Made by a program: the position numbers and the translations under genes. From the NCBI GenBank assembly GCA_963841015.1, contig CAWJAX010000005.1, positions 1-64,000 of the forward strand: a stretch of DNA of 64,000 nt, in the 5' to 3' direction. The notes beneath the pieces are model-generated. The model saw only the letters and a program-made list of their open reading frames with translations, had not been told where the DNA came from and did not search any database. This DNA comes from an uncultured Methanoregulaceae archaeon (GTDB lineage: Archaea > Halobacteriota > Methanomicrobia > Methanomicrobiales > Methanospirillaceae). Shown here one piece after another: positions 391 to 48,463 of this stretch. The stretch's first letter is position 1; each line of letters begins with the position of its first letter.

Positions 391-2348
391 TTAGATTATT
401 TTAACATTCGGCTGGAGAGCAGCGGGTATATTGGTACCCGATGCAATTGCCGGTACAATGGGGGTCTGACCATCTGCAGTCAGGACTGCCTGACCCTCTT
501 TACCGATGAGCAGGTTGATGAAGTCCACGCCGCCATCCGCATTGCGAGTGCTCGTAGGAATGGTCACCCCATAAATTATAGGAGTTGCAACTTCTGTGAC
601 GGTCGTTGAACCCGATGGGCGTATAACCTGAACATTCGCATATCGGGCAGTCATTGTGGGATCAGAAAGATCTATCTCAGGAGGAAGTGCCAGATAGGGG
701 AGTCCTGACTGGATCGCGACACTGCTGTACTCAAATGCGTAATCAACTGTTCCGGCCTTCAGGAGCGGAATAATATCAGGGCCGGTCTTGGTAATGACGA
801 GTTTCTTGCCATCCGGGGACGGGTTAGTTGCATTTATCGTATGCTTGGCTCCATCAGTCACTTTTGTCATCTTGCTGTAGGGTGCAACAAGGGTATTAAA
901 GATAGAACTGTCACCGTATTTCCGTTCTGCAAGGGCAATGGTCATAAGACTGCGGTAGCCTGCTGGATCTGAAGTAGGATCACTTATTGCGTAGGATACA
1001 TCTTTTGTTGCAAGAACGGTGTACCAGTTATCAGCATTGATGGTAGCGGCACTCTTACTGGTGTTGGTGTAAACAAGTACCATGCTGTTCTTTGCAAAGT
1101 TCACGTCAAAGGTTGCATTCTTCGGGTACAGGTTCTTTGGGATTAGGACCGTATCAGCGCTTGCCAGTACATCTGCAAACATATTCTGCTTGTTCACTTT
1201 GTCGATGATTGCTGCGCTTCCCCCACTATAGAGCTGGACATCGGTGTCCAGGTGTGCTTTTTCAAAGCTCTTCTCCAGTTTGGAAAATGAAGAGCCAAGG
1301 CTTCCTGCATGGTATGCCTTGAGGAGCCTGACTGCAGTAGCCGGGGTACTATAATCACCGACATATCCTGCAGCGGCTGTTGGTACACTTACACTCATCG
1401 GGGTGAACAGAGACTTGCCATACTTGTCTTTACCATAATCAGCGATATCCTGCTGGGTCTGTGGAGAGATAAGGAAACTGATGAAATCATTGGCCATCGT
1501 GATCTTTTCAGCAGGCTGTTTGCTGGTCAGTACCGCCATTGCGCTGTATATATTGAGCAGACTTGCACCCTGGGTTACAATCGGATCAAGTTTCAGATTG
1601 TTCTTATAGGCCAGGTAGGTACCTTCATCGGTGAGGGTGTATGCTCCTTTTTCGCTTGCCATCTGGAGGGTATCTCCCATGCCCTTCCCGGCTTCAACAT
1701 ACCAGGCACCGGATTTCTGAACGTCTGTGGCATATGTGTATCCGGCGCCCTTCCAGAGATTCTGCTCGGCACTGTGGGTACCAGAACCATCACCGCGTGA
1801 CACGAATATTACCTTCGTATCTCCACCCTTACCTTTTGTCAGGATAGTTTTGAAAGCGTTCTCGGGAGTCATTCCTTTGATTCCTGCAGGATCGCTTGCC
1901 GGCCCGATAATCAGGAAGTAGTTTGATGCAAAAGAACGGCGATTCAGCCCATTCCCGCCTTCCAGAAACGCCAGCTCCTGTGAGGGAGAGTGTACAAGCA
2001 GCACATCGGCATCGCCTTTCTTTGCAAGTTCGATCGCTTTCCCGGTGCCCTGTGAGGTGATAAGGAGATCAACATTGTTCTGTGCTTCGTACTTTGTCTC
2101 AAGATAATTCAGGAGACCGGTATCGTAGAGGCTCGTTGTTGTAGCGATAAGAAGTTTCTCCCTTGGGCCTGAAAATACGACGGGGGTTGCTGTCGGCGCT
2201 GCTGTTGTCGCTGCCGTACCAGGGGTTGCCGGGGTTGTTACCACCTGCTGGGGTGCCGGAGTGAGTTTGTACAGCCTGCAAAACAGGCAGAGAATATCAG
2301 TAGTGCGATAACTATTGCAATCAATCCAAAATGCACTTTTTTTGTCAT
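391..2348 (-). CDS. Tandem-fused tungstate/molybdate-binding lipoprotein: N-terminal TupA domain plus C-terminal WtpA/ModA-type domain
   Basis: TupA motifs TTTSLYDTGLL, GTGKA, SRGDGSGTH and TDEGTY are followed in frame by WtpA motifs YHAGSL, DPAGYR, DYAFEYSSVA and PIIYGVTIP. The likely true start is ATG 2348, giving the signal peptide/lipobox MTKKVHFGLIAIVIALLIFSACFAG-C, joined to the long ORF by a probable indel near 2263. Confidence 0.85.
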
Positions 2349-2420
2349 AGTATGACCGGTTTATACTTACTAATAGCAATTCTTCAATGTTTCTTTTTTG
2401 AAATTGTTAATTTTTTAAAA

Positions 2421-2664: not shown

Positions 2665-4437
2665 CTATGATAATTTAATATTTCCTTCTTTTTTCACGAG
2701 CACTTCTGAATCAACCATTACCTCATACCCTGAAAATTCTATTTTATATATACCCGGATTCCTGACAACAATCTCCTGCGAGGTTAAAGGAATCCCATAC
2801 AACCTGCCCCATCCCTCCTTTTCATACAAGCCACTTTCATTTGAGATTGTTATTTCAAACCATGCGAATTCATCCGGACGATTGACAATTGCGGTATCAA
2901 TTTTCTTTTGGAAATCTGTTGGTTCAAACCATTTTATATCAGTGATATTATGAGGTAAGACTTTATAGCGGATGACCAATGGTGGATTTTTAAGATCAAA
3001 GGAAATTTTATAGGAATTTACCAGATTATACGATATATTATTCTTGAAAATAGTCAGGTAATCCCTAGAATCAAAAGAAATACCCGGGGGAGGAGCCGGT
3101 TTTTCGAATAACATTTTATTGGTTTTAGGGCTGGTGTCAGGCTCCCGGATAACGGGTTCAATAGTTACGTACTGGGGTGTTTGGGCAGGGGTTGGCAGGG
3201 GAACAGGTGTGGAGAGCAGTGTGGGCGTGATTATCTTGTTCGTGGCAGATGCCGTAATTGTTCCATTTTTAGCTCCGAGTACGCTTCCTGTGGTGTTACC
3301 CTCGGTAATTGCCTGAGCATTGAAACCAGAGAAGATAACACTAGCCATGATGATTATCAACAATGCCATTGCCCCGGCTGTTAGGGAAAAGTATTGCGTG
3401 AATTTCTGTTCCTTGGGGTGATGCTGATGGATGAAATCCGGGACAGGTGCGAGCTGAACTTCGCTGCGCGAGTGATTATCAACCGTAACGAGGATTCGGG
3501 TTTCATCATTCCGTTTCCGTATCATACCGTAGGGTTTCTGATAAAGAGTAAGCTGTGAATACTCCACCTGTGGAGGTTTTTCCTTCTTCGGTGCCTCAAG
3601 AGCAGAGATAACACTACGAGGCACCCGCATACTACTCTGGTTCTGCAAAATCATTTCATTGAGTGTACGCAGGGGTCCGGGGAATTTCTCCCAGGAAAAT
3701 TCAAGACCCCACATGTTCCTGGCATGGATTCCTCCTTCCAGTGCGGACTCGAGCTCATCAATCTCAAACTGATCCCTATTGTCATGTAAAAGTGCACGGA
3801 TTTCCTCGGAGGTTGCCTCTTTTCCAAACTTTTTTATGAGATGTGGGGTGAGAAGTTCGATTATTTCATCAGTGAAGGTAAGATCCGGTGAAAACCTGTT
3901 AAAAATTTCTGCAAAACTTACCAGCTCATACAGGATTGACCGTATGTCAGCGTCCGGCCCGAGTTTTTTTTCTATAGCATCACCAAGGGGTGAAATAATG
4001 TCATTAATTGCTCCTGATTCGGTTTCTGCCAGACCTTCCAGATGCATCTGGCGTTCCTCTTCAAAAATCTTTGAAAATGTACCAATAATGAAGATATAAT
4101 TTGCCTCTACATTTTTTTTCCTAATAATGCGGTATATTTTTTCAAGATCCTCTAAAAAAGAGATAATATCAGCACATATCCGAACCCGCATAAGCTCGTC
4201 AGCGTTACCCATAGGGATGGTGCATTCTGTCTCAAACTCCAGTTTCTTCTGGTAAAAAAAGGTAAAAATATTGTCGAGGCTGTGCTCCTGAATATCAATT
4301 ACCTGGTGTTTATAAAGATCGAGAAGGATTTTTATTGAATTTTTCCGGGTTTCATCATAGAGACGACAGTAATTAACGCAATAGTGACGGAAGATCTGGT
4401 AGTCTTCTTTATTGAAATGTACATTCACCCTCCCCAT
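2665..4437 (-). CDS. Hypothetical single-pass membrane protein (helical N-domain, TM segment, Pro/Thr linker, extracellular C-domain)
   Basis: 590-aa ORF; hydrophobic segment LTAGAMALLIIIMASVIFSGF followed by a TPVPLPTP linker. Confidence 0.7.
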   Translation of the reverse strand: MGRVNVHFNKEDYQIFRHYCVNYCRLYDETRKNSIKILLDLYKHQVIDIQEHSLDNIFTFFYQKKLEFETECTIPMGNADELMRVRICADIISFLEDLEKIYRIIRKKNVEANYIFIIGTFSKIFEEERQMHLEGLAETESGAINDIISPLGDAIEKKLGPDADIRSILYELVSFAEIFNRFSPDLTFTDEIIELLTPHLIKKFGKEATSEEIRALLHDNRDQFEIDELESALEGGIHARNMWGLEFSWEKFPGPLRTLNEMILQNQSSMRVPRSVISALEAPKKEKPPQVEYSQLTLYQKPYGMIRKRNDETRILVTVDNHSRSEVQLAPVPDFIHQHHPKEQKFTQYFSLTAGAMALLIIIMASVIFSGFNAQAITEGNTTGSVLGAKNGTITASATNKIITPTLLSTPVPLPTPAQTPQYVTIEPVIREPDTSPKTNKMLFEKPAPPPGISFDSRDYLTIFKNNISYNLVNSYKISFDLKNPPLVIRYKVLPHNITDIKWFEPTDFQKKIDTAIVNRPDEFAWFEITISNESGLYEKEGWGRLYGIPLTSQEIVVRNPGIYKIEFSGYEVMVDSEVLVKKEGNIKLS

Positions 4438-4613: not shown

Positions 4614-5423
4614 TTAAACAGCACGGATAACGGTACCAACATTCTTTCCTTTAATGGCTTTTTCGATATTTCCCTTGATGTGGCAGTTGATGATTCTAAT
4701 CTCTTTTACATGGGCTGCATCTTTCAACAACTCGATAACCATCGGTTCAATCACCAGGTTCTCAAGGTTCATCGCTTCCAGTTCAGATGCAGTAATCTCC
4801 TTGATAAATTCCGCATCAGGGTGTGATGTAGGATCCTGCATGTACAGCCCGTTGACATTCTTACCAATAATGCAGTTCTTTGCTCCCATCACCTCAGCGA
4901 TAAGGAATGCACCGGTGTCCGTGCGGTGGGGAGGGATTGACCCGGATTTGGCAGGATGTTCATAGAGCCCGTACGGGGGCGTACCATGCATGACCGGCAG
5001 CATCCCGAGCTTCAGCAGGCTGGGAAGTTCAAGAAGATCCCCGGTATGGATTCTGACGCCATTATATTTTGAGAGGAGAATTGAGACCATAATCGCATTC
5101 TGTTCGGAAATCTTTGCCGAGAGTTCCGCAAGTACCCCGGTCGGCATGCCAAGATCCATCCCGACATCCATGATATGCCGGACCCGGCCACCGCCACCGG
5201 TCACAATGAGCATCTGGTGTAATTTTGATAATTGTCCAATCTCTTCGAGAAGCGGGTACATCACATCGCGCCCGTAATCAATCGCTGCATGTCCACCGAT
5301 TTTGATAACATTCAGCTCCGGCGTTATGCGTATCTGCTCTCCGGTCGCCCGCTTCCGGTGTAATCCTTTCCTGACGAGTGTCTCTCCTTGCAATCCACTG
5401 GATATCTCAAACCGCTTATGCAT
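4614..5423 (-). CDS. Molybdenum storage protein (MosA/MosB)-like protein, amino-acid-kinase/UMP-kinase fold
   Basis: Motifs VIKIGG, TGGGGRVRH, GMDLGMPTGVLA, EQNA, PPY..HP...IPPHRTDTGAFLIAE, NVNGLY..DP and VGTVIRA match the Azotobacter MoSto subunits as I recall them; lies among tungstate transport genes. Confidence 0.8.
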   Translation of the reverse strand: MHKRFEISSGLQGETLVRKGLHRKRATGEQIRITPELNVIKIGGHAAIDYGRDVMYPLLEEIGQLSKLHQMLIVTGGGGRVRHIMDVGMDLGMPTGVLAELSAKISEQNAIMVSILLSKYNGVRIHTGDLLELPSLLKLGMLPVMHGTPPYGLYEHPAKSGSIPPHRTDTGAFLIAEVMGAKNCIIGKNVNGLYMQDPTSHPDAEFIKEITASELEAMNLENLVIEPMVIELLKDAAHVKEIRIINCHIKGNIEKAIKGKNVGTVIRAV

Positions 5424-5490
5424 GGTATGTCACACCACCATGGTATCGCAAAGATAAGTTATAAGTTATTGTAAACCAGTTGGTATATCA
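5423..5490. promoter_or_regulatory. Cluster of TGGTATATCA-like boxes in the divergent promoter region
   Basis: TGGTATGTCA 5423-5432, TGGTATCGCA 5441-5450, TTGTAAACCA 5469-5478, TGGTATATCA 5481-5490. Confidence 0.55.
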
Positions 5491-5557
5491 GACACCAGTC
5501 ATTCCCCATACAAAAAGATAATATGATTGGGCAATGAGTATGGTGGGAGGAACCCAG

Positions 5558-5764
5558 ATGAAGATTTATGTGCGTGAACGCCAGAAAGTCGGTGAGGGTG
5601 TTGAGTCACCGAAATATCGTATCGTTGCTGTGACCGGTGGTCAGATACAGATTGAAGCAACCCACTTCCGGAAGTTCGAGATCGAACAGATTGCCAAGGA
5701 TATCAAAGCCGAACTCGTTTACATGAAACCGGTCGCAGACGACCAGAAGAAAAAGAAGCACTGA
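5558..5764 (+). CDS. Small basic hypothetical protein (68 aa)
   Basis: GGAGG ribosome-binding site at 5546-5550 before ATG 5558; protein-like sequence MKIYVRERQKVG; T-rich terminator follows. Confidence 0.75.
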   Translation: MKIYVRERQKVGEGVESPKYRIVAVTGGQIQIEATHFRKFEIEQIAKDIKAELVYMKPVADDQKKKKH

Positions 5765-5872
5765 AAGAATTACTTTTTTCAAAGAAACTTTTTTTCTTTC
5801 CTTATTGAGCGCTTTGAATAGTACTCCGTGTATCTTTATGCTCTCCCATTCCATAGTAATGTACGATTACCC

Positions 5873-6223
5873 ATGGCTGTACTCTCGGTTGATATCCTTT
5901 TTGATGCAGCGATTCGGATCCAGCTCGCAGAGCGATCAATCTCCCTCACGTTTGTGCAGGATGAGGTCCGGATAAAATTCCCGACTACACGACGGCTGGC
6001 AGAATTTCTTGAGGTCCCCCATTATTATGTCCTGCCCTATTTTGCCATGATGGAACAGGAAGAGCTCGTCACCCGTGCTGAACGTGTGGGGATCCTGACT
6101 ACCGCAAAGGGGAGCCGGAAAATGATTGCCCTGATGAAAGATAAATATCTCAAAGAAATGAATGAGATCATCGGTTCGACCATTTTTCAAGAAATTATAA
6201 CAAAATGTCTATTACCTGCTTAA
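5873..6223 (+). CDS. GntR-like winged helix-turn-helix protein, probable regulator
   Basis: KFPTTRRLAEFLEV...MEQEELVTRAERVGILTT resembles the GntR pattern LPSxxxLAxxLxV...LxxEGLVxxxxxxGxxV; start ATG 5873 preferred. Confidence 0.65.
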   Translation: MAVLSVDILFDAAIRIQLAERSISLTFVQDEVRIKFPTTRRLAEFLEVPHYYVLPYFAMMEQEELVTRAERVGILTTAKGSRKMIALMKDKYLKEMNEIIGSTIFQEIITKCLLPA

Positions 6224-6271
6224 GGAATAGATTTTTTCCTCGATTCCCAATATTTTTGATACTTTCGTTTT

Positions 6272-6305
6272 CTGGTATATCAATTGTTTATCAGTTGGTT
6301 AATCA
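6272..6305 (+). promoter_or_regulatory. Three tandem operator-like boxes upstream of tupA
   Basis: TGGTATATCA 6273-6282, TTGTTTATCA 6284-6293 and TGGTTAATCA 6296-6305, upstream of a BRE/TATA-like AAAGAAACAG-TTTTTATA at 6326-6343. Confidence 0.6.
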
Positions 6306-6382
6306 TAAAAAATTTACAATTTAAAAAAGAAACAGTTTTTATAGATAATCACAGATCTTATGCCATAAAGGATTGATCTTGT

Positions 6383-7405
6383 ATGAAACGTTTTTCTGAA
6401 TTATCACTGGGAATTCTGTTAGTAATTCTCCTTATCGGAGTTGTGTTTATAGCAGGATGTACAACAACCCAACCGGACCCGGCCACGACTACCGCTGTAA
6501 CTACACCGCCAACAATCGTAGCTGGTGAAAAGACAAAACTTCTCGTTGCAACGACAACAAGTCTCTACGACACCGGGCTCCTGAACTACCTCGAGCCGAA
6601 ATTCGAATCGATGTATAATGTCGATCTGCAGATCACGTCCCAGGGCACCGGTAAAGCGATCGAAATTGCCAAGAAAGGCGATGCTGATGTGCTTCTCGTA
6701 CATTCCCCATCCCAGGAACTGGCATTTGTAAAGGACGGGTTCGGTATTAACCGTCGATCATTTGCTTCAAACAATTTCATGATTGTCGGGCCGGGAAATG
6801 ACCCGGCAGGAATTGCCAATATGACGCCCGAGAATGCCTTCACCACCCTTCTTGTGAAGGGTACGAACAACACGGCAGGCGTAGTCTTTGTATCCCGTGG
6901 TGACGCTTCCGGGACACACACTGCGGAGCAGAAGATCTGGTCCAATGCGAAGTACAATTATACCACAAACGTCTCAAAATCCGGCAACTGGTACGTTGAA
7001 GCCGGTAAAGGCATGGGAGAGACCCTCCAGATGGCAAGCGAAAAGGGGGCATACACCTTCACGGACGAAGGGACCTACCTTTCGTATAAGAACAACCTGA
7101 AACTCGTCCCGATCATCTCGAAAGGAGCAAGTCTGCTCAACATCTACAGCGTCATGACCGTTTACAATGCCAAGCAGCCGGTCGAGAAGATACAGATGGC
7201 GAACAATTTTGTGAATTTCCTGATAACACCGCAGACTCAGGCAGATATCGGTAACTTTGGTGTGGACAAGTACGGAAAGGCATTGTTTACCCCCATGAGT
7301 ATCAGCGTTCCGACAGCACCAGCGGGCAATGTAGGAGATTACAGCACGCCTGCAACGGATCTCAAACCACCAGTGGCAGCTGTAAACGCTACCGTGACAA
7401 AATAA
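6383..7405 (+). CDS. tupA: Tungstate ABC transporter substrate-binding lipoprotein
   Basis: Lipobox IAGC; motifs TTTSLYDTGLL, SRGDASGTH and TDEGTY; close paralogue of the N-domain of 391..2348. Confidence 0.9.
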   Translation: MKRFSELSLGILLVILLIGVVFIAGCTTTQPDPATTTAVTTPPTIVAGEKTKLLVATTTSLYDTGLLNYLEPKFESMYNVDLQITSQGTGKAIEIAKKGDADVLLVHSPSQELAFVKDGFGINRRSFASNNFMIVGPGNDPAGIANMTPENAFTTLLVKGTNNTAGVVFVSRGDASGTHTAEQKIWSNAKYNYTTNVSKSGNWYVEAGKGMGETLQMASEKGAYTFTDEGTYLSYKNNLKLVPIISKGASLLNIYSVMTVYNAKQPVEKIQMANNFVNFLITPQTQADIGNFGVDKYGKALFTPMSISVPTAPAGNVGDYSTPATDLKPPVAAVNATVTK

Positions 7406-7854
7406 CCTCCCTTTTTTTGTAAACGATCCGTTTACCCTTACCTTCCTGGGCACGTTCCGGGAATAGTTTTCAAGGACAGTAACAGGCTGCAGGAAGTTTT
7501 TTTTGGAGAATATGCGATAAAAATGGTTGCGTCACCGCAAGGCCCGACTTTCCGGGAATTTTAATAAATCCTTGTCTGGTTTTATTGGTTCTGGAGCAAT
7601 CTCAAAACAGCTCCGTGCTCGTGAGGATTGCACCTCGGCGCTTTGTGTTCCCCAAAAATGCGATACCCAGTGAACACAAAATACGTCATCATCGCAATAA
7701 GCGCAGGTGGGGCAGGGGGAAACAATAACGGTTACGCCGTTATCGTACCTGTGCTTTGTATTTCCTGTCAGAGGAAAAGGGATACTCAACGTGGTTTTAT
7801 TGTTCTGCTCATTACAAAGTACAGAAGAACTGTTAACAGCGGCGAGATCCAGGG

Positions 7855-8982
7855 TTAAGATCTTTGTTTATTTTGTTCCCTTCTCCGTCCAATCCATGCC
7901 AGAAGATATGCAAGTACCAGCCCGACGATAAATGCAATGGTCATTGAGCTGAGAAGGGCTAAGATACCAATGATACCGGTAATGGCGAGGGAATCTGTCC
8001 TTAAGCTGTACCGTGCCATCTCAATCCCGACAAACACCAGCAGTGCTCCAAGAACTCCGATCGCAATGATGTACAGAACCTGAGGCGCGGAGAAGAAAAG
8101 GGCGAGGAAGAGAAAAATCAGCCCTGCATAGACATTTGCCCCACCTGTCCTCGCACCATAACGGTGCTGCCCGGCAAGTCCCCCGGCCCCGTGGCACATC
8201 GGAAATCCCCCAAAGGGGACCGAAGTAAGGTTCATCAGCCCTATAGAGGTCGAGAATTTCTTTGGAGGGATATCCACAGAAAAAAGATCTTTAGTAAGGA
8301 GTGAGGTTGCGAGAATTGCGTTTGCAATCGTGAGGACAACCTGGGGCAGAACGAGCGTTTTCAGGGCAGAAGAAAAATCGGAGGGAAGGGGAATTACCAG
8401 CTGGGGTGCAGGGATAAAACTCATCGCGGGTATGCCGTACAGGTACAGCCCCCCCAGTAACCCGACGCCGATGACACACAGTGACGAAAGATCGGGAACA
8501 CGACGGTAACGAAAAAGGACAAGGAACACTATGATAATCACTATCCCGACAATGAAAAAGAACGGATCTTTGATCACAAAATCTGCTGAAGCCTTAAAAA
8601 GGAGCAGGGCAAGACCGAGCTGGATTCCCCTGACGACACTCTCCGGCACCCACCGATCAATAACCTCAAATAAACGGCCGTAACCAAGCACGAGGAAGAT
8701 AACGCCGAGGATGAGTCCGGCTGCAGCAATCTCGCCGCTGCTGATACCCCCGGCGATGACAATCACGGCGATCGCTTTCATGGGTTCAAGAGGGATCGGC
8801 AACCGGTAATAAAACCCGGTAAGAATGAACCAGATACCAAAGAAGAGAAGCACGTACCGGATATTGACATCAGATACCAGCCCCACGGCAATGATCAGCG
8901 GGATGATCGTCCCGAAATCACCCAGGGAACCCGCCAGCTCTGACAGGGAGAATTTCATGGGGGTTGCGGACATCAGGGACAC
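7855..8982 (-). CDS. MOT1-family molybdate/sulfate transporter
   Basis: Motifs ELAGSLGDFGT, PLEPMKAIA and PMCHGAGGLAGQHRYGARTG; many TM helices; exact start uncertain. Confidence 0.85.
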   Translation of the reverse strand: MSLMSATPMKFSLSELAGSLGDFGTIIPLIIAVGLVSDVNIRYVLLFFGIWFILTGFYYRLPIPLEPMKAIAVIVIAGGISSGEIAAAGLILGVIFLVLGYGRLFEVIDRWVPESVVRGIQLGLALLLFKASADFVIKDPFFFIVGIVIIIVFLVLFRYRRVPDLSSLCVIGVGLLGGLYLYGIPAMSFIPAPQLVIPLPSDFSSALKTLVLPQVVLTIANAILATSLLTKDLFSVDIPPKKFSTSIGLMNLTSVPFGGFPMCHGAGGLAGQHRYGARTGGANVYAGLIFLFLALFFSAPQVLYIIAIGVLGALLVFVGIEMARYSLRTDSLAITGIIGILALLSSMTIAFIVGLVLAYLLAWIGRRREQNKQRS

Positions 8983-9189: not shown

Positions 9190-9918
9190 ATGAGCGAGAT
9201 TGTATCGGGATTCATACAGGCATTAAACCTGATTGTCACTTTCGATCCCGAAGTGATGCAGATAGCCGCACTCTCTATATTGATCTCACTTGCTGCAACG
9301 GTCATTGCAGCCTCAATATCCATTCCTTTGGGGGGACTTATCCATTTTTACGAATTCCGGGGCAAACGGGCGGTTATCATCCTGATCCAGACCCTCTATT
9401 CCATCCCGACCGTTGTCGTGGGACTCCTGCTCTACCTTATGTTCTCCCGGAGCGGCCCGCTCGGGATATTCGGGCTCCTGTTCACCCCGGAAGGGATGAT
9501 CATCGGACAGGCCGTGCTGATTATTCCCATCATCACCGGACTGGTCATCGCCGCTCTTGGCGGAGTCGACCGGAATATCAGCGACACCCTCATCTCGCTG
9601 GGTGCTACCGGAATCCAGACCATCATGCAGGTTGTGAGGGAAGCTCGTCTGGCGATCCTCAGTGCAGTGGTCCTTGGCTTTGGCCGTGCTATCTCAGAAG
9701 TCGGTGTTGCAATGATGATCGGTGGCAATATCCGGGGAGAGACACGCGTACTGACAACTGCAATAGCGCTCCAGACAGGTATCGGTGATTTCCCGTTCTC
9801 AATCGCTCTTGGCATCATCCTGCTCCTGATAGCGCTCGTCATAGTAATCATCATGAATATCATCATATCCGGCCTGTCGGTTGAGTCCCAGCAGGCACTT
9901 GGAGGGCCACGATTATGA
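9190..9918 (+). CDS. tupB: Tungstate ABC transporter permease
   Basis: Motifs PTVVVGL..Y...SRSGPLG, FGRAISEVG..M.IGGNI and TRVLTTAI. Confidence 0.9.
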   Translation: MSEIVSGFIQALNLIVTFDPEVMQIAALSILISLAATVIAASISIPLGGLIHFYEFRGKRAVIILIQTLYSIPTVVVGLLLYLMFSRSGPLGIFGLLFTPEGMIIGQAVLIIPIITGLVIAALGGVDRNISDTLISLGATGIQTIMQVVREARLAILSAVVLGFGRAISEVGVAMMIGGNIRGETRVLTTAIALQTGIGDFPFSIALGIILLLIALVIVIIMNIIISGLSVESQQALGGPRL

Positions 9919-11000
9919 TCCGGATAGAAGGTCTCTCGCGCGTGGCTGGTGGCAAAACTATTCTCGAATCGATCGATCTCGAAATTCATCGCGGGGAGAT
10001 CTTCACCTTTATCGGGCCGAGCGGGAGCGGAAAGACTACGCTCCTGCGTCTCATCGATCTTCTCGATACACCAACAAACGGTACTATCATTTTTGACGGA
10101 ATTGATACCACTGCGTCAAATACGGATCGGCTTTCGATCCGCAGGCGCATGTCGATGGTCTTCCAGAAACCCGCAGTCCTGAACTTAACCGTTGCCGGCA
10201 ATGTTGCATTCGGACTGAAGTTCCGTGGTGTGGAAAAATCAGAGACTGATACACGTGTTCATGAGGCTCTTGATATCGTCGGGCTCCTGCACCTTGCAGA
10301 CCGGAAAGCGGTCACGCTCTCCGGAGGAGAAATGCAGCGCGTAGCAATCGCACGGGCACTGGTGACCCGGCCTGAAGTCCTTCTTCTCGACGAACCGACG
10401 GCAAATCTTGATCCAGTCAACACTGAGTTGATCGAAAATCTGATCAGGCGCATCCACAAGCGCTTTCAGACTACTATCATCCTCTCTACGCACGATATGA
10501 TCCAGGGCCAGCGCCTCGCAGACAGGATCGGGGTGATTATGAAAGGGAAAATTGCCCAGGTCGGTTCACTCCATGACATTTTTTACCGTCCGAATGGCAA
10601 AGACATCGCCCGGTTTGTGGGTATCGAAACGATATTGGAAGGTATCGTCGAATCCAACGAAGAGGGACATGCCCGCGTTAGTGTCGGGAATGCTGTCTTT
10701 GAAGTGATCACTCCCTGTAAACCCGAAACAAAGGTATCCTTATTCATCCGCCCGGAAGAAGTGACCATCGCGGTCAGGGACGGGGATCTGCCCAAAACCA
10801 GTGTACGCAACCAGCTAAGCGGGACAATCATAAAGATGGTGCCCTTCGGACCATTTGTCCGTACTACGATCGACTTCGGTTCTCCGCTGACAGCACTGGT
10901 GACCCGCAGGTCTGCTGATGAGCTCGGACTTGCGGTCGGGATGGCAGTGATCGCTGGTGTTAAAGCCACGGCCATTCATGTCCGTCCGGATACCAGCTGA
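9915..11000 (+). CDS. tupC: Tungstate/molybdate ABC ATPase with C-terminal TOBE domains
   Basis: Walker A GPSGSGKT, LSGGE, LLLDEP; TOBE motifs SVRNQLSG and VKATAI; ATGA overlap with tupB. Confidence 0.85.
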   Translation: MIRIEGLSRVAGGKTILESIDLEIHRGEIFTFIGPSGSGKTTLLRLIDLLDTPTNGTIIFDGIDTTASNTDRLSIRRRMSMVFQKPAVLNLTVAGNVAFGLKFRGVEKSETDTRVHEALDIVGLLHLADRKAVTLSGGEMQRVAIARALVTRPEVLLLDEPTANLDPVNTELIENLIRRIHKRFQTTIILSTHDMIQGQRLADRIGVIMKGKIAQVGSLHDIFYRPNGKDIARFVGIETILEGIVESNEEGHARVSVGNAVFEVITPCKPETKVSLFIRPEEVTIAVRDGDLPKTSVRNQLSGTIIKMVPFGPFVRTTIDFGSPLTALVTRRSADELGLAVGMAVIAGVKATAIHVRPDTS

Positions 11001-22032: not shown

Positions 22033-22209
22033 AAAAAACCCATATACTATCTGCACCTTACTTAAAGAGGATTATTCTTTAACCGGGGGCAGGTGCCTTC
22101 CCCGCAGAGCAAAAAAAATCGATCGCCGACCGGGTTTACACTTTTACGGTAAAAAAAGGGAATGATAATTATTAAACAAGAGGGAGGTAAGATCATAAGT
22201 GGTGCGAGC

Positions 22210-24495
22210 ATGAAGGACGTTCCGAATATTCTGTGGCTCGAGGAGATCAGGAAGGAAGATATTGTATCGGTCGGGGGTAAGGGAGCTTCTCTTGGCGAGA
22301 TGGCATCCATCGGGCTCCCGGTTCCGAAAGCCTTCGTGGTAACTGCTCAGGCCTTCCGAAGGTTTTTGGTTGAGACCGGTATTGAAAAGAAGATATTTGC
22401 ATCCTATGAACGACTTGATGTCGAAGATAACGAGGCACTTGAGAAAGCTGCCGAGGGTGCAAAGACCATGGTGCTCAGGGCAAAGATGCCGGCATTCATA
22501 AAAGACGAGATCCGTCACGCGTACAAAAAAATTTCAGCAGAAGACCTGATCGTGGCAGTCAGATCAAGCGCTACTGCCGAAGACCTCCCGGATGCCAGTT
22601 TTGCCGGACAACAGGAGACGTATCTGAATATAAAAGGGGAAGCAGCCCTCCTTGAGGCTGTGCAAAAATGCTGGGCATCCCTTTACGGGGCCCGGGCGAT
22701 CTATTACCGCGCCAAGCAGGGATTTGATGATCACACGGTAAATATCGCTGTTGTCGTGCAGCAGCTCGTTCACTCTGAAAAGGCCGGGGTCATGTTCACC
22801 TCCCACCCCATTACCGGTGAACCGCTCACGATTATCGAAGGATCGTGGGGACTTGGTGAAGCGGTTGTTTCCGGTTCGGTTTCACCGGATAAATATATCT
22901 TTGACCAGCGGTCGGAGAAAGTAGACGACGTCCTTATCTCGAACAAGAAAGTAGAGATCATCGCTGACGGGGATCATGGTACAAAGCTGGTGGATGTACC
23001 AGCTTCCCGACAGGATACACAGGTGCTGTCTACCGCTGAAATTACCAAGCTTGCCATGTATGGCAAGATTGCTGAAAACCATTATGGTATCCCCCAGGAT
23101 GTTGAATGGGGCATTGTGAACGGGATTATTTATATTCTCCAGTCCCGTCCGATCACTACGATTGGGAACAAGAAAGAGGCAAAGAGCATGTCAGGACAAA
23201 AACAGAACGCAAAGATTATTCTGCAGGGACAGGGAGCGGCTCCCGGTATCGCTTCGGGCAGGGTCGTCGTCATCCGGGACGTAAAAGACACCGGAAGTGT
23301 AAAAGAGGGCGACATTCTCGTCACGAAGATGACAAGCCCTGACATGGTTCCGGCAATGCGCAAGGTAGCCGCAATTATCACCGATGAGGGAGGGTTGACC
23401 TGCCACGCTGCTATCGTCAGCCGTGAACTGGGGACCCCGGCAGTTGTAGGAACGAAAACTGCAACCCATGTTCTGACGAACGGGCAGCTTATTACCGTTG
23501 ATGGCGAGAAAGGTCTCATTTATGAAGGTGAGATAACCGCTCCGGCAAAACCGGCTCAGGTAGTGCAGATGGCAGACTGCCGCTCCACATATTATCACTG
23601 CTACAAGTGTAAAGGTGAATGTTTCCATTCCCGAAGCAGCAGCCCGGGCTGCAGCGACCGGAGCAGACGGGGTCGGATTATTGAGGATAGAACACCTCAT
23701 CCTTGGGCTTAACAAGACACCGGGCTGGTTTATCGCCAACAACAAGGAAGAGGATTTTGTCAGGGAACTTCATGATGGCATCAAGATCGTTACTCGATGC
23801 ATTCCCCGGTAAACCGGTATGGGTGCGGACACTCGATGCCCCGACCGATGAATTCCGCAACATGATGGGGGGAGAGAACGAACCCCTTGAACACAACCCC
23901 ATGCTTGGCTGGCGCGGGATCCGTCGCGACATCCAGAGCCCGGATCAATTCCGTCTTCAGGTTGAGTCGTTCAAGCGTCTCTGGAAAGAGGGATATGATA
24001 ATCTCGGCATCATGTTCCCGATGGTTTCCCATCCCGATGAGTTCCTGGCAGCAAAGGCGATGATGATGGCCTGCGGGGTGGATGTTGATAATGTAACCCT
24101 TGGAATTATGATCGAAATACCGGCAAGCGCGATCATGATCGAGGACTTCCTCAAGTGCGGCATAAAATTCGCTTCATTCGGGACAAACGATCTTGTCCAG
24201 TACACACTCGCGATTGACCGGAACAATGAAAATGTTGCTGACATGTACGAGCCCCAGCATCCTGCCGTGCTTCACCTGATCCACACGGCAATCCAGATGT
24301 GCAGGGCGTACGATGTGGAGTGCTCAATCTGCGGGCAGGCTGGTTCTGACCCGAAGATGGCAGAGCTGGCTCGTTGAGCACGGCATAGCAAGCATATCGG
24401 CAAATATCGATGCAATCGCCAAGATCCGTGAGGCGGTTGCCCGCACGGAAAAGCGTATCATTCTCGAGGCAGCGAGAAACCGCGATGCTGAATAA
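22210..24495 (+). CDS. ppsA: Phosphoenolpyruvate synthase (three apparent frameshifts near 23570, 23790 and 24362)
   Basis: VGGKGASLGE, AVRSSATAED, TCHAAIVSRE, NPMLGWRG, FGTNDLVQY and ICGQA are distributed over four consecutive frames. Confidence 0.9.
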
Positions 24496-36498: not shown

Positions 36499-36621
36499 TG
36501 ATAGCAGCTTGGTATGATTCCCGAGGACTCGCGTACCTCGGTACAACATACTACGTGAGCTGGCTTAACTTCTGGGTTCGGAATGAGACCAGGTGTGTCC
36601 CAGCTGCTATGGCCGCTATCA
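36499..36621 (-). rRNA. rrf: 5S rRNA
   Basis: GATAGCGGCCATAGC...CCGAACCCAGAAGTTAAGCC...GCTGCTATC; ends approximate. Confidence 0.95.
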
Positions 36622-36646
36622 CCACAAATACGGGGTAAAACCCCAA

Positions 36647-36718
36647 AGCCAAGGTCCGGATTTGAACCGGAGTGTAGTTGATCTGCAGTCAACCGCGTGG
36701 CCGCTCCGCCACCTTGGC
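36647..36718 (-). tRNA. tRNA-Cys(GCA)
   Basis: GCCAAGG...GTTGA-CTGCAGA-TCAAC...GTTCAAATCCGG.CCTTGGC. Confidence 0.95.
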
Positions 36719-36807
36719 GACCGTGTAGTTTGATACCCTATTTTCTATGTCAGGATAGGATATAAGGTTTGCACACAGAATTTCGTCTGGGTTTAACGTG
36801 GTGAGCA

Positions 36808-39718
<2,911 letters not shown>

Positions 39719-39833
39719 TGCTCCGCTAAACCCATTTAACGTCCTGTGTGCAAACCTTTACACGGCCTCAAAAAGTCATTGGTTTGACTCTCAGCCCTTC
39801 CCTCGTGATTCACATCCCGAGGTGCATCTAAAA

Positions 39834-39887
39834 CGGTTCATCAGGATTCGAACCCGTATTCTTTCACCCCATTTTGGTGATTGAACC
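39834..39887 (-). ncRNA. tRNA-like element (acceptor stem plus T arm, no D arm) in the 16S-23S spacer
   Basis: GGTTCA-A-TCACC(AAAATGG)GGTGA-AAGAATA-CGGG(TTCGAAT)CCTG-A-TGAACC-G. Confidence 0.6.
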
Positions 39888-39956
39888 TTATTATTGTCGA
39901 CACCGGCAATTTTACAGTTTGTTTAGCAACCGCGTAACCCAAAAATCAAATTCGTT

Positions 39957-41423
<1,467 letters not shown>

Positions 41424-42082: not shown

Positions 42083-42967
42083 TCAGTTGTCTGCATGACA
42101 AATCTGCACAAAAACATCACCGAAAAACTCTTCCTGCCGCAGGGAACACCGCCCCTCAAGGGCAAGGAAGAGGAGCGGGATATAGACTTCCGGGATGCCC
42201 CACTCCATCTTCTCGCATAGCTCAGCCAGGGTCATCTCTTCATCGATCTCCAGACCTTCGAGATATTCTGCGAGCAGCACCATGGACGATTCCTGGTAGC
42301 CTTCATCATGGGCAATACTCACGACATCATCGGCGTAGATAAGATAATCGTCCCCCACATCCTTGAGACGGCGGCGCCTGCGCTCTTCTTTTTCGATGTT
42401 TTTCAGTTCAATGATCAGTTCAAAGAGCGTAACCGGGCTTTTTCGCAGGTTCTTCCGGTCGAGCCGCCGCTGTATCTCGTGTTCCAGCAGCTCGATAGGG
42501 CCAAGCCTCCCATGGTAATCTGTCTCAGAATCGAGTGCAAGGGCATAATCTTCTCCGTACGATTCGTCATCTTCATCAAGGCCTTCTATAGCAGGATCTG
42601 ACTGGAGTTCGAGTTGTTCTGACTTCATGCGCAACAGGGTTGCGGCATAAAAGAGCGTACGTCCGGAGACCTGCAGGTTAAGTTGCCGGCATCGTTCAAG
42701 TTCAGACAGGAACCGGTCGGTCACTTCGATAATATTAATATTCCATGGATCGATTTCACCCCGCTCAGCAAGTCCCACCAGAATCTCAACCGGGTCTTCA
42801 ATAACACCTGACAGGGATGATTCGGAGGGTTCAGATACCAAAGAAGAATCCTCAGGGGCTCCCGAAGGATCCGGTTCAGGGGGGGTTTCTAAGCCTGGGG
42901 TTTCACGCTCGAGCGGGGAGATGTCGGGGGGATTGTTACCGGGTTTATTCTCATAAGGATCAGCCAT
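42083..42967 (-). CDS. scpA: Segregation and condensation protein A (kleisin)
   Basis: DPVEILV.LAERGEIDPWNINI, ATLLRMKS and QEEFFGD; overlaps the end of smc. Confidence 0.9.
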   Translation of the reverse strand: MADPYENKPGNNPPDISPLERETPGLETPPEPDPSGAPEDSSLVSEPSESSLSGVIEDPVEILVGLAERGEIDPWNINIIEVTDRFLSELERCRQLNLQVSGRTLFYAATLLRMKSEQLELQSDPAIEGLDEDDESYGEDYALALDSETDYHGRLGPIELLEHEIQRRLDRKNLRKSPVTLFELIIELKNIEKEERRRRRLKDVGDDYLIYADDVVSIAHDEGYQESSMVLLAEYLEGLEIDEEMTLAELCEKMEWGIPEVYIPLLFLALEGRCSLRQEEFFGDVFVQICHADN

Positions 42968-46909: not shown

Positions 46910-47223
46910 TGATATCAGTTTCTCCTTTTCTTCATGGTTATACTCAAGATATACGATCTTTGCATCAGGTCTGCGCCATCACGCATACTTACTGTACTGG
47001 TGCGGCGCACTCCTTATAAATAATAGTAGTGATCGCCGGATAAGGAAAAAAGGTTTGTGCTTTATTTCACCTTACAATCCGCTGTACGCAGATAATCCTG
47101 ACCTTTATTTACGCGCTCTGCTGGCAGAAAATCGAAAAAGTGTCATCCGGCAACAAAATTGTCCAACGCGCTTACCAGTGCCGGGAAAAAGGTATTACCT
47201 GATTGCAGCGAACCCTTCTCCAT

Positions 47224-48463
47224 ATGTCCTATCTGTCTAAAACTGATCCAGAAATAGCAGATATCATCGAGAAGGAGCGGCTCCGCCAGCAAAATGGTCT
47301 TGAGCTGATCGCGTCTGAAAATCTCGTTTCGCATGCAGTACTTGAGGCCATGGGGTCAATAATGACCAACAAATATGCCGAAGGATATCCCGGGAAAAGA
47401 TACTATGGAGGCTGCGAATTCCATGATATGGCAGAGAATCTTGCCCGTGATCGCCTGAAAGAGCTGTTCGGGGCAGAGCATGCAAACGTCCAGCCGCACT
47501 CAGGTACCCAGGCAAATATGGCAGTCTATTTTGCGTTCATGAACCTTGGAGATACTCTGATGAGCATGAAGCTCACCCAGGGAGGACACCTTTCCCATGG
47601 CTCACCGGTCAGCTTTACCGGGAAATTTTACAAAGTAGCCCAGTACAGCCTCGATCCCAAAACGGAAACACTGGATTATGGTGTAATTGAAGAGATGGCA
47701 AAAAAGGAAAAGCCGAAGATGCTTGTCTGCGGGGCATCTGCGTACCCGAGAACCATTGATTTTAAAGCGTTCCAGGAAATTGCAGATAGTGTCGGGGCAT
47801 ACTGTATGGCAGACATTGCCCATATCGCGGGACTTTGTGCAACGGGTGTTCACCCGAACTCGGTCAATGTCGTAAACTTCACGACTACTACAACACACAA
47901 GACACTCCGGGGCCCCCGTGGCGGAGCAATCATGTGCAACAGCGAGTATGCACAGCCAATTGACAAGGCTATATTCCCCGGCATGCAGGGGGGTCCGCTC
48001 ATGCACACTATAACCGCAAAAGTCTGTCTGCTTCAAAGAGGCGCTCAGGCCCTCGTTCAAGGAATACAATAAACAGATCGTAAAGAACGCACAGGTGCTC
48101 GCAGAGACCCTGATGAATCACGGGCTTCGGCTCGTTTCCGGGGGTACTGATAACCACCTGATGCTTCTTGACCTCACTGCACAGGGTATTACCGGACTTG
48201 AGGCGGAAAATGCACTCGGAAGAGCAGGCATTACCGTCAATAAGAACACAATCCCCAATGAAACCAAGAGCCCGTTTGTCACCAGCGGGCTGCGTGTCGG
48301 TACGCCGGCAGTCACTTCCCGGGGCATGAAAGAAGCAGAGATGCGCCAGATAGGGACCTGGATAGCAACAGTGGTAAAGGATATCAGCAACGAAGCGGCA
48401 ATCAAAAATGTGCATACCGGTGTGACTGCGATGGCAAGCAGATTCACCCTGCATCCCGAATAA
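47224..48463 (+). CDS. glyA: Serine hydroxymethyltransferase, bacterial/THF type (frameshift near 48022)
   Basis: Motifs [41 protein letters not shown] and GLRVGTPA. Confidence 0.93.

Follow-up and report, generated by a model that had tools for sequence, protein, structure and literature searches.

Gene content of the locus

The window analyzed here is a stretch of 64,000 nucleotides from a Methanoregula-like genome (2.28 Mb; 94% complete). Near its beginning lies a gene for a 269-aa relative of the Azotobacter storage protein MoSto, which is divergently oriented to a small gene of 68 codons and surrounded by putative molybdate and tungstate transport genes. The features of this region are as follows.

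391..2379, minus strand: TupA-like/WtpA fusion of 662 aa (PBP_like_2 and SBP_bac_11)
4614..5423, minus strand: MoSto-like gene, 269 aa, amino-acid-kinase fold with an AA_kinase Pfam match
5458..5465, minus strand: TATA-like box, CTTATAAC, located 35-42 nt before the start codon of the MoSto-like gene and conserved in the alignment
5471..5492, no strand assigned: operator-like element in the divergent promoter region, with the core palindrome ACCAnnTGGT at 5475-5484
5558..5764, plus strand: 68-aa partner gene, reading frame open from 5534, likely start ATG at 5558 with GGAGG at 5546-5550
5873..6223, plus strand: 117-aa winged-helix-like gene, reading frame open from 5828, conserved start at 5873
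6383..7405, plus strand: TupA-like periplasmic oxyanion-binding protein (PBP_like_2, 127 bits; tung_bind_TupA, 178 bits against a cut-off of 400)
7855..8982, minus strand: MOT1-family molybdate transporter (PF16983, 179 bits)
9190..9918, plus strand: TupB-like ABC permease (ABC_perm1, 233 bits, which passes; TupB, 171 bits against a cut-off of 320)
9915..11000, plus strand: ABC ATPase with a C-terminal, molybdate/tungstate-binding TOBE domain (ABC_tran and TOBE; WtpC, 301 bits, below the cut-off)

Because the TupA and TupB scores fall under the NCBIfam equivalog cut-offs, we refer to these genes as TupA-like and TupB-like. Given that the WtpC-like score is also below its cut-off and that a MOT1-family gene is present, the neighborhood favors neither tungsten nor molybdenum. 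In the fusion protein encoded at 391..2379, the WtpA portion passes TIGR03730 (272 vs. 242.75 bits). Such a setting is common in the clade of single-gene MoSto-like proteins described below: 68 of its 84 loci contain transporter genes for molybdenum or tungsten, as do 45 of the 49 that span 12 kb or more, compared with three of the 80 MosA-type loci. Loci L076 and L079, from Geobacteraceae, have the gene order tup genes, moeA, moaC, moaB, MoSto-like gene, and partner. The 590-aa reading frame downstream of the MoSto-like gene (2665-4437) was considered as a member of the module and rejected, as it is present in only one of the 84 loci.

The earlier note on this DNA had placed the gene among Tup genes rather than nitrogenase genes, which agrees with the adjoining transporters and with our failure to find NifD in the genome (best match 77 bits vs. 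a cut-off of 653). Four molybdopterin-oxidoreductase genes were found, while a search of the genome for tungsten-only AOR enzymes found none. The sole TOBE domain found in the genome is that of the transporter ATPase (9915..11000), and the genome has no free-standing TOBE-type storage protein.

Identity of the MoSto-like protein

The 269-aa protein matches AA_kinase (PF00696) with 92 bits in Pfam. Among PDB chains searched with phmmer, it scores 203 bits with MosB (E = 6.6e-59; a full-length, gap-free alignment) and 158 bits with MosA (E = 3.5e-45). UMP kinases reach about 43 bits at best, 160 bits under MosB. It also stays below the equivalog cut-offs for PyrH, with 73.7 vs. 158 bits for the archaeal model TIGR02076 (pyrH_arch) and 47.6 vs. 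243.9 bits for TIGR02075. A true pyrH, for which the earlier note had suggested that the genome be checked, is present elsewhere (G000:C3:16440-17102; 267 bits, above the cut-off). Judged by sequence, the protein is therefore a true MoSto relative and not PyrH, as had been proposed. The accompanying expectation that such genes would be auto-annotated as uridylate kinase also held, since homologs are labeled "uridylate kinase" or "amino acid kinase family protein" by NCBI; the JGI label is "molybdenum storage protein." Our finding corrects this systematic "uridylate kinase" mis-annotation of MoSto-like homologs.

The mosaic of alpha-like and beta-like motifs that had been described for this protein is seen in our alignments. 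The alpha-like segments are IPPHRTDTGAFL and GMDLG (in alpha, IPPHRADTGAFL and GLDLG), and the beta-like segments are YPLLEEI and an undeleted PPY...IPP stretch; the PPYHHHE of alpha is replaced by PPYGLYEH. The N-terminal arm of the MoSto family is present in the alignment. Within the clade, K41, G43, G44, G76-G78, R82, H83, T168, D169, and G171 are invariant, and most positions of the KxGG lysine motif, the Gly-rich loop, and the RTD...G motif are conserved across the MoSto family. By these residues, the ATP site of the kinase fold is kept in the MoSto-like protein.

Copy number and phylogenetic placement

A search of the genome with the protein itself as query identified 4614-5423 as the sole MoSto-type gene. 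A profile of the alpha/beta type gave 297 bits for this gene and 56 bits for PyrH, and no second MoSto-type gene. The claim of one gene in place of an alpha/beta pair is thus upheld at the 94% completeness of this genome. Among 41 related genomes, 27 have the MoSto-like gene, and 23 of these have a single match. Two full copies are present in G018, G031, and G036, and G016 has an extra fragment of 67 aa. The tandem copies of G036 are 82% identical to one another, which points to a recent duplication and not to an alpha/beta pair.

In the family tree, the single-gene MoSto-like proteins form a clade with a support of 99/100, and the backbone is unresolved. At 30 positions, residues conserved within the clade differ from the alpha and beta representatives alike. 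On this phylogenetic evidence, the single-gene proteins make up a third lineage separate from both alpha and beta, and the tree lends no support to the suggestion that the protein represents an ancestral form. As judged from the homologs collected, this branch is widespread and occurs in methanogens and in anaerobic bacteria, including Geobacteraceae.

Linkage of the MoSto-like gene to a small partner gene

The 68-aa gene (5558..5764) accompanies the MoSto-like gene nearly throughout. A partner was found within 600 bp of 77 of the 86 MoSto-like genes and within 4 kb of four more; of the five genes without one, three are at contig edges. Among the 41 related genomes, 27 have both genes and 14 have neither, and the copy numbers are equal. 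Across 301 genomes of the phylum, 51 have both genes, none has the MoSto-like gene alone, six have the partner alone, and 244 have neither. Each of the tandem MoSto-like duplicates has its own partner. The linkage is specific to the clade, as the partner was detected (E ≤ 1) in 79 of the 84 clade loci and in none of the 80 canonical mosB-mosA loci. Eight loci, all of them bacterial, have both genes on one strand, with the partner following the MoSto-like gene directly after a gap of 13-176 nt.

The partner-only cases appear to be relics. In one such genome, a MoSto remnant of 73 aa lies 29 bp from the partner, and the partners of G065 and G084 have each lost one otherwise invariant residue. 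In three genomes of one genus, the partner looks intact and an intact MoSto-like gene is missing. The earlier view of a stand-alone homo-oligomer calls for revision in view of these patterns. It had also been noted that an obligate partner subunit encoded elsewhere would weigh against that view; the 68-aa gene does co-occur strictly, but its product is no MoSto paralog.

Several lines of evidence describe this protein. Of 445 substitutions, 307 are at third codon positions. It is usually basic (median pI 9.2) and has five invariant residues, namely, Arg6, Arg8, Lys10, His36, and Arg38; the partner alignment contains neither a conserved Cys nor a conserved C-terminal residue. The predicted structure (pLDDT 81) has a beta-beta-alpha-beta arrangement. 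Searches returned no match in Pfam at E ≤ 10 and none in NCBIfam, and the best PDB profile match (E = 0.048) covers only 24 residues. In fold comparisons, the best Foldseek match has E = 0.37, and the best VIA matches (Z = 3.9) are unrelated chains. An Atlas search returned just the partner's own unnamed clusters, and all 2154 clusters of the family are named "hypothetical." The partner was also considered as a fragment of the MoSto fold and rejected (hhalign probability of 2% against the MoSto family). A Rosetta-stone search gave eight longer matches, none of which is a convincing fusion: P0453, a single sequence in which the partner is joined to a MoSto-like segment via low-complexity sequence, resembles a frameshifted gene call, P0454 is similar junk, and P0449 is a tandem double partner. 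Since the partner has no recognizable family or fold, any role proposed for it is a guess.

Contigs from RNA libraries cover the partner in two studies and the MoSto-like gene in one. These are assembled metatranscriptomes that may contain DNA and give no strand, level, or transcript ends, such that they are weak evidence of expression.

Promoter region and putative regulator

The TATA-like box at 5458..5465 would be the promoter element of the MoSto-like gene. The adjacent operator-like element (5471..5492) occurs once in the window and nowhere else in the genome, and it is invariant in all 14 intergenic regions of the Methanoregula type. Its palindrome was found in 53 of 67 divergent intergenic regions, compared with one of 3350 shuffles. 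The 117-aa gene is present in 62 of the 84 clade loci, and its product has weak profile matches to the winged helix-turn-helix (wHTH) of SSO2273 (E = 0.009), to the wHTH of DtxR-family repressors (E of about 0.06), and to 3ic7 (E = 0.0025). The operator occurs in 54 of the 57 regions with an adjacent 117-aa gene and in three of the eight regions without one, while all 65 regions contain the partner. These associations suggest that the 117-aa winged-helix-like protein is the probable regulator of the module. No match to this gene was found in the seven bacterial loci examined. Pfam likewise identified no TiaS-like kinase domain among 33 reading frames surrounding the module in seven bacterial loci of the clade. 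No Moco riboswitch was found in the window, and such riboswitches were found in only one of eight bacterial loci (L091, two copies).

Proposed function and alternative explanations

The combination of a single MoSto-related gene, a constant small companion, and tungstate/molybdate uptake genes probably marks a means of managing or stockpiling tungsten and molybdenum that has yet to be studied. From this gene content, we lean, by a narrow judgment, toward an ATP-driven module for storage or handling of the two metals that consists of one cage-type subunit and the small partner. Oligomerization, a physical association with the partner, ATP-driven deposition of metal, and any preference for tungsten are features that we infer. 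The 269-aa protein may form a homo-oligomer, possibly a hexamer as in UMP kinases and MoSto. The retained ATP site would drive the uptake of tungstate or molybdate, supplied by the Tup, Wtp, and MOT1 transporters, into this protein, which would hold the metal most likely as a polyoxometalate; the stored metal could later feed the methanogenesis enzymes that use tungsto- and molybdopterin. The 68-aa protein could be a subunit or an accessory factor that serves as a cap, as a cluster-binding lining, or in release and hand-over, and it may assume tasks of the Azotobacter alpha subunit. The winged-helix-like protein would act on the palindromic operator to regulate the divergent promoter.

A more elaborate version of this storage or handling module can be drawn, and we offer it tentatively, with its full set of details being doubtful: a two-component nanocage for tungsten (and molybdenum) in methanogens and anaerobic bacteria, in which a homo-hexameric MoSto-type ATPase is capped or lined by copies of the basic 68-aa protein, the invariant Arg and His residues of the partner replace the cluster ligands of alpha, a metal-responsive winged-helix repressor of its own controls expression, and the metal is delivered to formylmethanofuran and formate dehydrogenases. 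A rather unlikely alternative is that the MoSto-like protein stores nothing and is an ATP-dependent enzyme of oxyanion handling, e.g., one that activates tungstate or molybdate by forming a phospho-metalate, a route that has been proposed for MoSto beta; the small protein would then carry or pass the metal to the cofactor insertase MoeA or help in discriminating between tungsten and molybdenum. The retention of ATP-site residues despite the loss of the alpha cluster ligands would fit such an enzyme, as would the position of the pair directly behind moeA-moaC-moaB in Geobacteraceae and the five invariant basic residues of the partner, which would suit oxyanion binding. However, the partner keeps no carrier-type feature, such as a conserved Cys or C-terminal residue, and the closest characterized relatives of the MoSto-like protein are storage cages. 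If instead the protein were a self-sufficient homo-hexameric cage and the 68-aa gene a co-regulated neighbor whose product does not bind it, then the single MoSto-type gene in the genome, the family N-terminal arm with the ATP motifs, and the homo-hexameric state of UMP kinases, the nearest other relatives, would all be expected. We consider this unlikely given the strict co-occurrence, coupled copy numbers, and joint duplication of the small gene, its same-strand position directly downstream in the eight bacterial loci, and the signs of decay in partner-only copies.

Two further explanations receive still less credence. The basic character of the 68-aa protein could suggest a small regulator that binds DNA and controls the MoSto-like gene instead of serving as a subunit, as could the archaeal arrangement, in which the two genes diverge from a conserved palindromic operator. 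Yet the operator tracks the 117-aa gene and not the partner, which none of the 65 regions lacks; the partner occurs in bacterial loci as well, but none of the seven examined gave a 117-aa match; and the partner model, in which neither a helix-turn-helix nor a ribbon-helix-helix is seen, matches no DNA-binding structure. Such a regulatory role is thus quite improbable. The least credible explanation, to which we give hardly any weight, is a diverged UMP kinase or other small-molecule kinase that takes no part in metal handling. The amino-acid-kinase fold and the NCBI "uridylate kinase" label would accord with it, but the scores far under the PyrH cut-offs, the true pyrH in the same genome, the margin of 160 bits by which MosB exceeds any UMP kinase, and the constant molybdenum/tungsten gene setting argue against it.

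Significance

The literature treats MoSto as a peculiarity of Azotobacter-type nitrogen fixers, and a 2019 genetic study even states that MoSto has no known homologs (PMC6448029). Our literature search found no paper describing a module of a MoSto-like gene and a 68-aa partner. Tungsten buffering in strict anaerobes and methanogens is largely an open question, although central enzymes of these organisms need tungsten; only in 2025 was a defined role reported for a tungsten storage protein, Tub, the first such case (PMC11980592). The one-subunit MoSto branch provides a directly testable candidate for such buffering in anaerobes, as well as a natural experiment that sets the hetero-hexameric cage against a simpler architecture. 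The partner represents a new family of small proteins with a clear first hypothesis. Should the nanocage prove true, no polyoxotungstate store would have been described in archaea before it.

Comparison with known systems

The MoSto of Azotobacter vinelandii (MosA/MosB; PDB 2OGX, 4F6T, and 6GU5) belongs to the same amino-acid-kinase-derived family as the 269-aa protein. It is encoded by two adjacent paralogous genes and forms an (alpha-beta)3 hexamer, whereas only one MoSto-type gene is present here; in canonical MoSto loci, beta lies directly upstream of alpha in 71 of 80 cases. These canonical loci lack the 68-aa companion that the single-gene clade has, and, unlike Azotobacter MoSto, the 269-aa protein is encoded among tungsten/molybdenum transporter genes with no nitrogenase context. 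Beta Met149 is said, in work by Brunle et al. in PNAS in 2019, to be a gate residue. The corresponding position here is Thr148, and all 34 clade sequences compared have Thr at it. In the alpha subunit, the histidine on the threefold axis is one that we take to be His140. Alpha Glu129, His156, and His140 align with His126, Gly152, and Leu136 of the 269-aa protein, respectively. In the structural account of PMC4504029, Glu129 and His156 are the covalent cluster ligands of alpha, together with three symmetry-related histidines on the threefold axis. With these cluster-binding residues replaced, the cage chemistry of Azotobacter is not conserved. Both molybdenum and tungsten are stored by MoSto, according to two papers (PMC6448029; PMC4504029).

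The fold of the 269-aa protein is also common to the archaeal UMP kinase PyrH (TIGR02076; PDB 2BRI, 2BMU, and 2IJ9). As a rule, a single gene suffices for the homo-hexamers that UMP kinases, including PyrH, form. The TOBE-type molbindins Mop and Tub (the latter from Eubacterium limosum) resemble the module as candidate cytoplasmic stores of tungstate or molybdate whose genes adjoin those of Tup or Mod transporters (PMC11980592). Their fold is unrelated to that of MoSto, and they bind a few oxyanions passively. MoSto-type proteins, unlike Tub and Mop, use ATP and hold polynuclear clusters.

A precedent for a small protein on a hexamer of this fold is PII, a small trimeric protein that caps the amino-acid-kinase-fold hexamer of N-acetylglutamate kinase on its threefold axis. 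The 68-aa partner has no detectable similarity to PII in sequence or structure (the best structural Z, 3.9, belongs to unrelated chains), and the PII-N-acetylglutamate kinase complex may still serve as a model for how the partner could act on the MoSto-like protein.

Identity and copy number of the MoSto-like gene

The window contains a homolog of MoSto, the molybdenum/tungsten storage protein of Azotobacter (alpha subunit, MosA; beta subunit, MosB), and a small gene that we refer to as its partner.

4614-5423, minus strand: MoSto-like gene, an ORF of 269 aa
5534-5764, plus strand: ORF of the partner; probable start ATG at 5558, preceded by a conserved GGAGG; 68 aa

The MoSto-like protein belongs to the Pfam amino-acid-kinase family (92 bits). 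Among all PDB chains, its best match is MosB (203 bits, E 6.6e-59; gap-free over residues 12-268), compared with 158 bits (E 3.5e-45) for MosA and 43 bits for the top UMP kinase. Its score against the archaeal PyrH model (73.7 bits) is below the cut-off of 158, and a genuine pyrH is present on another contig of the same genome (267 bits, above the cut-off). The proposal in the earlier note that this gene encodes a MoSto relative rather than PyrH is thus upheld. Alignment with a MosA-like (P0150; 473 bits to 2OGX_A) and a MosB-like (P0136; 320 bits to 2OGX_B) reference also bore out the mixture of motifs described there, namely, the alpha-like IPPHRTDTGAFL and GMDLG, the beta-like YPLLEEI and undeleted PPY...IPP segment, and the replacement of PPYHHHE of alpha by PPYGLYEH.

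We inferred a maximum-likelihood tree from 45 sequences: the window protein, 25 of the 85 remaining clade members, selected to cover a range of taxa, 18 full-length representatives of the family, and PyrH of this genome as the outgroup. All partner-linked sequences fell in one clade (support 99/100, stem 0.8). Besides Methanomicrobiales and Geobacteraceae/Desulfuromonadales, this clade takes in MAGs of Thermoplasmatota and Borrarchaeota. Pairing of the MosA-like with the MosB-like representatives is weak (80/18). The backbone is unresolved, such that the "ancestral" status suggested previously is neither supported nor rejected.

A single MoSto-type gene was found in the genome to which the window belongs (2.28 Mb in 5 contigs, 94% complete), and no second subunit was detected there with either a protein query or an alpha/beta-type profile. 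The profile matched the MoSto-like gene (297 bits), PyrH (56), a third kinase-fold frame (17), and nothing more. Among 41 related Methanomicrobiales genomes, 27 have the MoSto-like gene, with one match in 23 of these; G018, G031, and G036 have two full copies each, and G016 has an extra 67-aa fragment. The adjacent copies of G036 are 82% identical and therefore represent a recent duplication rather than an alpha/beta pair. Tandem duplication of the partner and MoSto-like gene together is seen in one genus, at 5805-8081 of locus L017 (G036:C1:1943000-1957000) and in L018 (G031). Five further genomes reached through the loci (two Geobacteraceae, a Desulfuromonas, a Pedobacter-labelled MAG, and a Thermoplasmatota MAG) carry the clade-type gene in one copy or in two copies on separate contigs, and no alpha/beta-type gene was found in these five.

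Linkage and properties of the 68-aa partner

Using tblastn of the window's neighbours against 84 clade loci with 86 MoSto-like genes, we found the partner within 600 bp of the MoSto-like gene in 77 of 86 cases: divergent upstream in 66, directly downstream on the same strand in eight, each at a bacterial locus, and on the opposite strand but still downstream in three. The partner is 1-4 kb away in four more cases and missing in five, of which three are less than 170 bp from a contig end. The profiles of the two genes are identical in the 41 relatives (27 with both, 14 with neither), and copy numbers are coupled, with two of each in G018, G031, and G036. Across 301 genomes of the phylum, 51 have both genes, none has the MoSto-like gene alone, six have the partner alone, and 244 have neither; because these genomes are related rather than independent observations, such counts overstate the statistical weight.

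The six partner-only genomes are from one genus, and three of their partner matches contain in-frame stops. In five of the six, the MoSto profile found PyrH-like genes only, except in G153, where the C-terminal 73 codons of a MoSto-like gene persist 29 bp from the partner. Among the four copies inspected, G065 lacks the invariant His36 and G084 lacks the invariant Pro18. The copies of G044, G084, and G153 look intact, which counts against an absolute dependence on the MoSto-like gene. In the loci of these four genomes (L190-L193), the module looks like it is being lost.

For the canonical control, a metagenome-contig scan with the alpha/beta-type alignment yielded 80 loci, all MosA-type and at least 80% identical to P0150, which represent one narrow lineage. 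A beta-type gene is directly upstream of alpha in 71 of these, and eight of the other nine begin no more than about 160 bp from the end of a contig. The partner HMM had no match in any of the 80 loci even at E<=1 (292 kb of flank scanned; both flanks of the gene pair reach 600 bp or more in 31 loci, and one flank does so in 43 others), compared with 79 of 84 clade loci at E<=1e-3. One gene call (P0453) suggests that the partner is also present upstream of a MoSto-like gene from another lineage.

The partner is under purifying selection; third codon positions take 307 of 445 substitutions in 11 comparisons. Residues R6, R8, P18, H36, R38, E41, and A51 are invariant in 37 sequences, the protein is usually basic (median pI 9.2, range 5.7-10), and the family has no conserved Cys. 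No family was found in Pfam (E<=10) or NCBIfam, all 2154 cluster relatives are named "hypothetical," and the best hit among PDB sequence profiles covers 24 residues (E 0.048). The possibility that the partner is a piece of the MoSto fold was rejected (hhalign probability 2%). The AlphaFold2 model from the 37 sequences (mean pLDDT 81, pTM 0.63) has strands at 2-9, 19-26, and 52-56 and a helix at 39-48. No convincing structural relative of this model was found by Foldseek (best E 0.37) or VIA-align (best Z 3.9 over 48 residues, well under typical values for unrelated models). Genomics is therefore the source of the role proposed for the partner.

Putative regulation and presence in RNA libraries

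5471-5492: 22-bp element in the divergent intergenic region; invariant in 14 of 14 Methanoregula-type loci
5873-6223, plus strand: winged-helix-like gene, 117 aa, conserved start at 5873; first ORF beyond the partner; carried by 62 of 84 clade loci

The 22-bp element has no second copy in the window or in the genome. Of 67 divergent intergenic regions from several genera, 53 contain its core palindrome ACCAnnTGGT, against 1 of 3350 shuffles. Allowing up to one mismatch, the palindrome is present in 54 of 57 regions with the 117-aa gene adjacent and three of eight without; the partner is present in all 65. This distribution points to the 117-aa protein, rather than the partner, as the putative operator-binding regulator. 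All matches of the 117-aa protein are weak and to winged-helix DNA-binding domains (3ic7, E 0.0025; SSO2273, E 0.009; DtxR-family repressors, E about 0.06). L017 and L018, the tandem-duplicated loci, each have a single winged-helix-like gene and lack the operator before the inner MoSto-like copy.

Metatranscriptome contigs (X18) contain parts of the MoSto-like gene, partner, and 117-aa gene at 88-95% likeness, and one of 532 nt runs across the latter two. A cDNA-library contig from another study (X20) corresponds to 5511-5767 with six differences. These contigs show presence in RNA libraries, short of proven transcription.

Genomic neighbourhood and probable metal use

391-2379, minus strand: TupA-like+WtpA fusion, 662 aa; TupA-like at residues about 74-327, WtpA at 353-624 (above the TIGR03730 cut-off)
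2665-4437, minus strand: ORF of 590 aa directly downstream of the MoSto-like gene; no Pfam/NCBIfam match
36499-41423, minus strand: complete 16S-23S-5S rRNA operon, with a tRNA at 36647-36718

The earlier note placed the MoSto-like gene among Tup genes rather than nitrogenase genes, and the pair is indeed surrounded by tungstate/molybdate transport genes. These encode a TupA-like binding protein, a MOT1 molybdate transporter, a TupB-like permease, an ABC ATPase with TOBE, and the fusion; the TupA, TupB, and WtpC scores are under NCBIfam equivalog cut-offs. The fusion combines two different tungstate/molybdate-binding modules in one polypeptide, and several related loci have long matches to its whole length (e.g., L022, L025, L033, L045, L048, L086, and L094). 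The 590-aa ORF is found in only one of 84 related loci and therefore appears lineage-specific and not part of the module.

At least one Mo/W transport gene is present in 68 of 84 clade loci (45 of 49 among loci of at least 12 kb), compared with three of 80 MosA-type loci (two of 19 among loci of at least 8 kb), the flanks of which are shorter. In two Geobacteraceae loci, tup genes, moeA, moaC, and a moaB/mog-type gene precede the pair (L076, 3198-7154; L079, 3558-9183), forming a compact Mo/W cofactor island, and L076 has a MobA-like NTP transferase with an HD domain nearby. Two Moco/Tuco-type riboswitch aptamers were identified within 5 kb of the MoSto-like gene in a deltaproteobacterial MAG (L091, minus strand: 3754-3872, 75 bits; 7421-7539, 64 bits), and none was found in the other seven bacterial loci.

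In the window's genome, we found no NifD (best 77 bits against a cut-off of 653), no AOR-family tungstoenzyme, and no TOBE domain beyond that of the transporter ATPase. Four molybdopterin-oxidoreductase-family genes are present; therefore, judging from sizes and knowledge of methanogens, the consumers would be formate and formylmethanofuran dehydrogenases. Apart from the MoSto-like module, no storage candidate was recognised in this genome.

Elsewhere in the window, the rRNA operon accounts for an ORF-poor, composition-skewed stretch. Three housekeeping genes look split or truncated at 22162-24377, 42960-45471, and 47203-48072: PEP synthase is divided between two ORFs that overlap, SMC is broken into two or more pieces, and serine hydroxymethyltransferase covers only profile positions 1-292 of 399. 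They are pseudogenes or have been disrupted by assembly indels.

Interpretation

The most cautious reading is that these genes represent a distinct MoSto branch, in which a single cage-type gene is accompanied by a dedicated small partner and tied to cofactor genes and to genes for tungstate/molybdate uptake. The ATP motifs of the kinase fold do not vary within the clade. The likeliest mechanism, which we favour by a little over even chances, is a homo-oligomeric cage in which metal is stored with the use of ATP and with help from the partner. The main rival, ATP-dependent metal activation or hand-over without bulk storage, would be a rather improbable explanation. Tungsten is a plausible metal because of the TupA-like and WtpA neighbours, and molybdenum is a possible alternative.

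Our literature search found only Azotobacter work, polyoxometalate reviews, and the Tub paper, and no paper in the library that we searched deals with both molybdenum storage and methanogens. A 2019 genetic study describes MoSto as having no known homologues (PMC6448029). The JGI pipeline already names homologues of the window protein "molybdenum storage protein," so the homology itself is known to databases.

Comparison with other MoSto-family proteins

The KxGG lysine is absent in several other MoSto-family lineages (A1: P0126, P0142, P0144, P0146, P0147, P0172, and P0200), whose proteins may be catalytically inactive partner subunits in other hetero-oligomeric systems. In a single metagenomic sequence (P0127, 732 aa), a CbiQ-like transporter domain occupies the N terminus, and residues about 465-729 form a MoSto-like domain of the kinase fold; this protein may be a candidate fusion of a membrane transport component with a cage-type domain.

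Where conservation within the clade is 90% or higher, 30 positions are unlike both the alpha and the beta representatives, 12 agree with alpha but not beta, and 17 agree with beta but not alpha. The position of Met149 of MoSto beta, reportedly a gate residue, is occupied by an invariant Thr148 inside the strictly conserved G-T-P-P-Y-G-L-x-E-x-P. The threefold-axis His of Azotobacter alpha, which we take to be number 140, aligns with Leu136 of the MoSto-like protein. The covalent cluster ligands of alpha, Glu129 and His156 (PMC4504029), align with His126 and Gly152, respectively.
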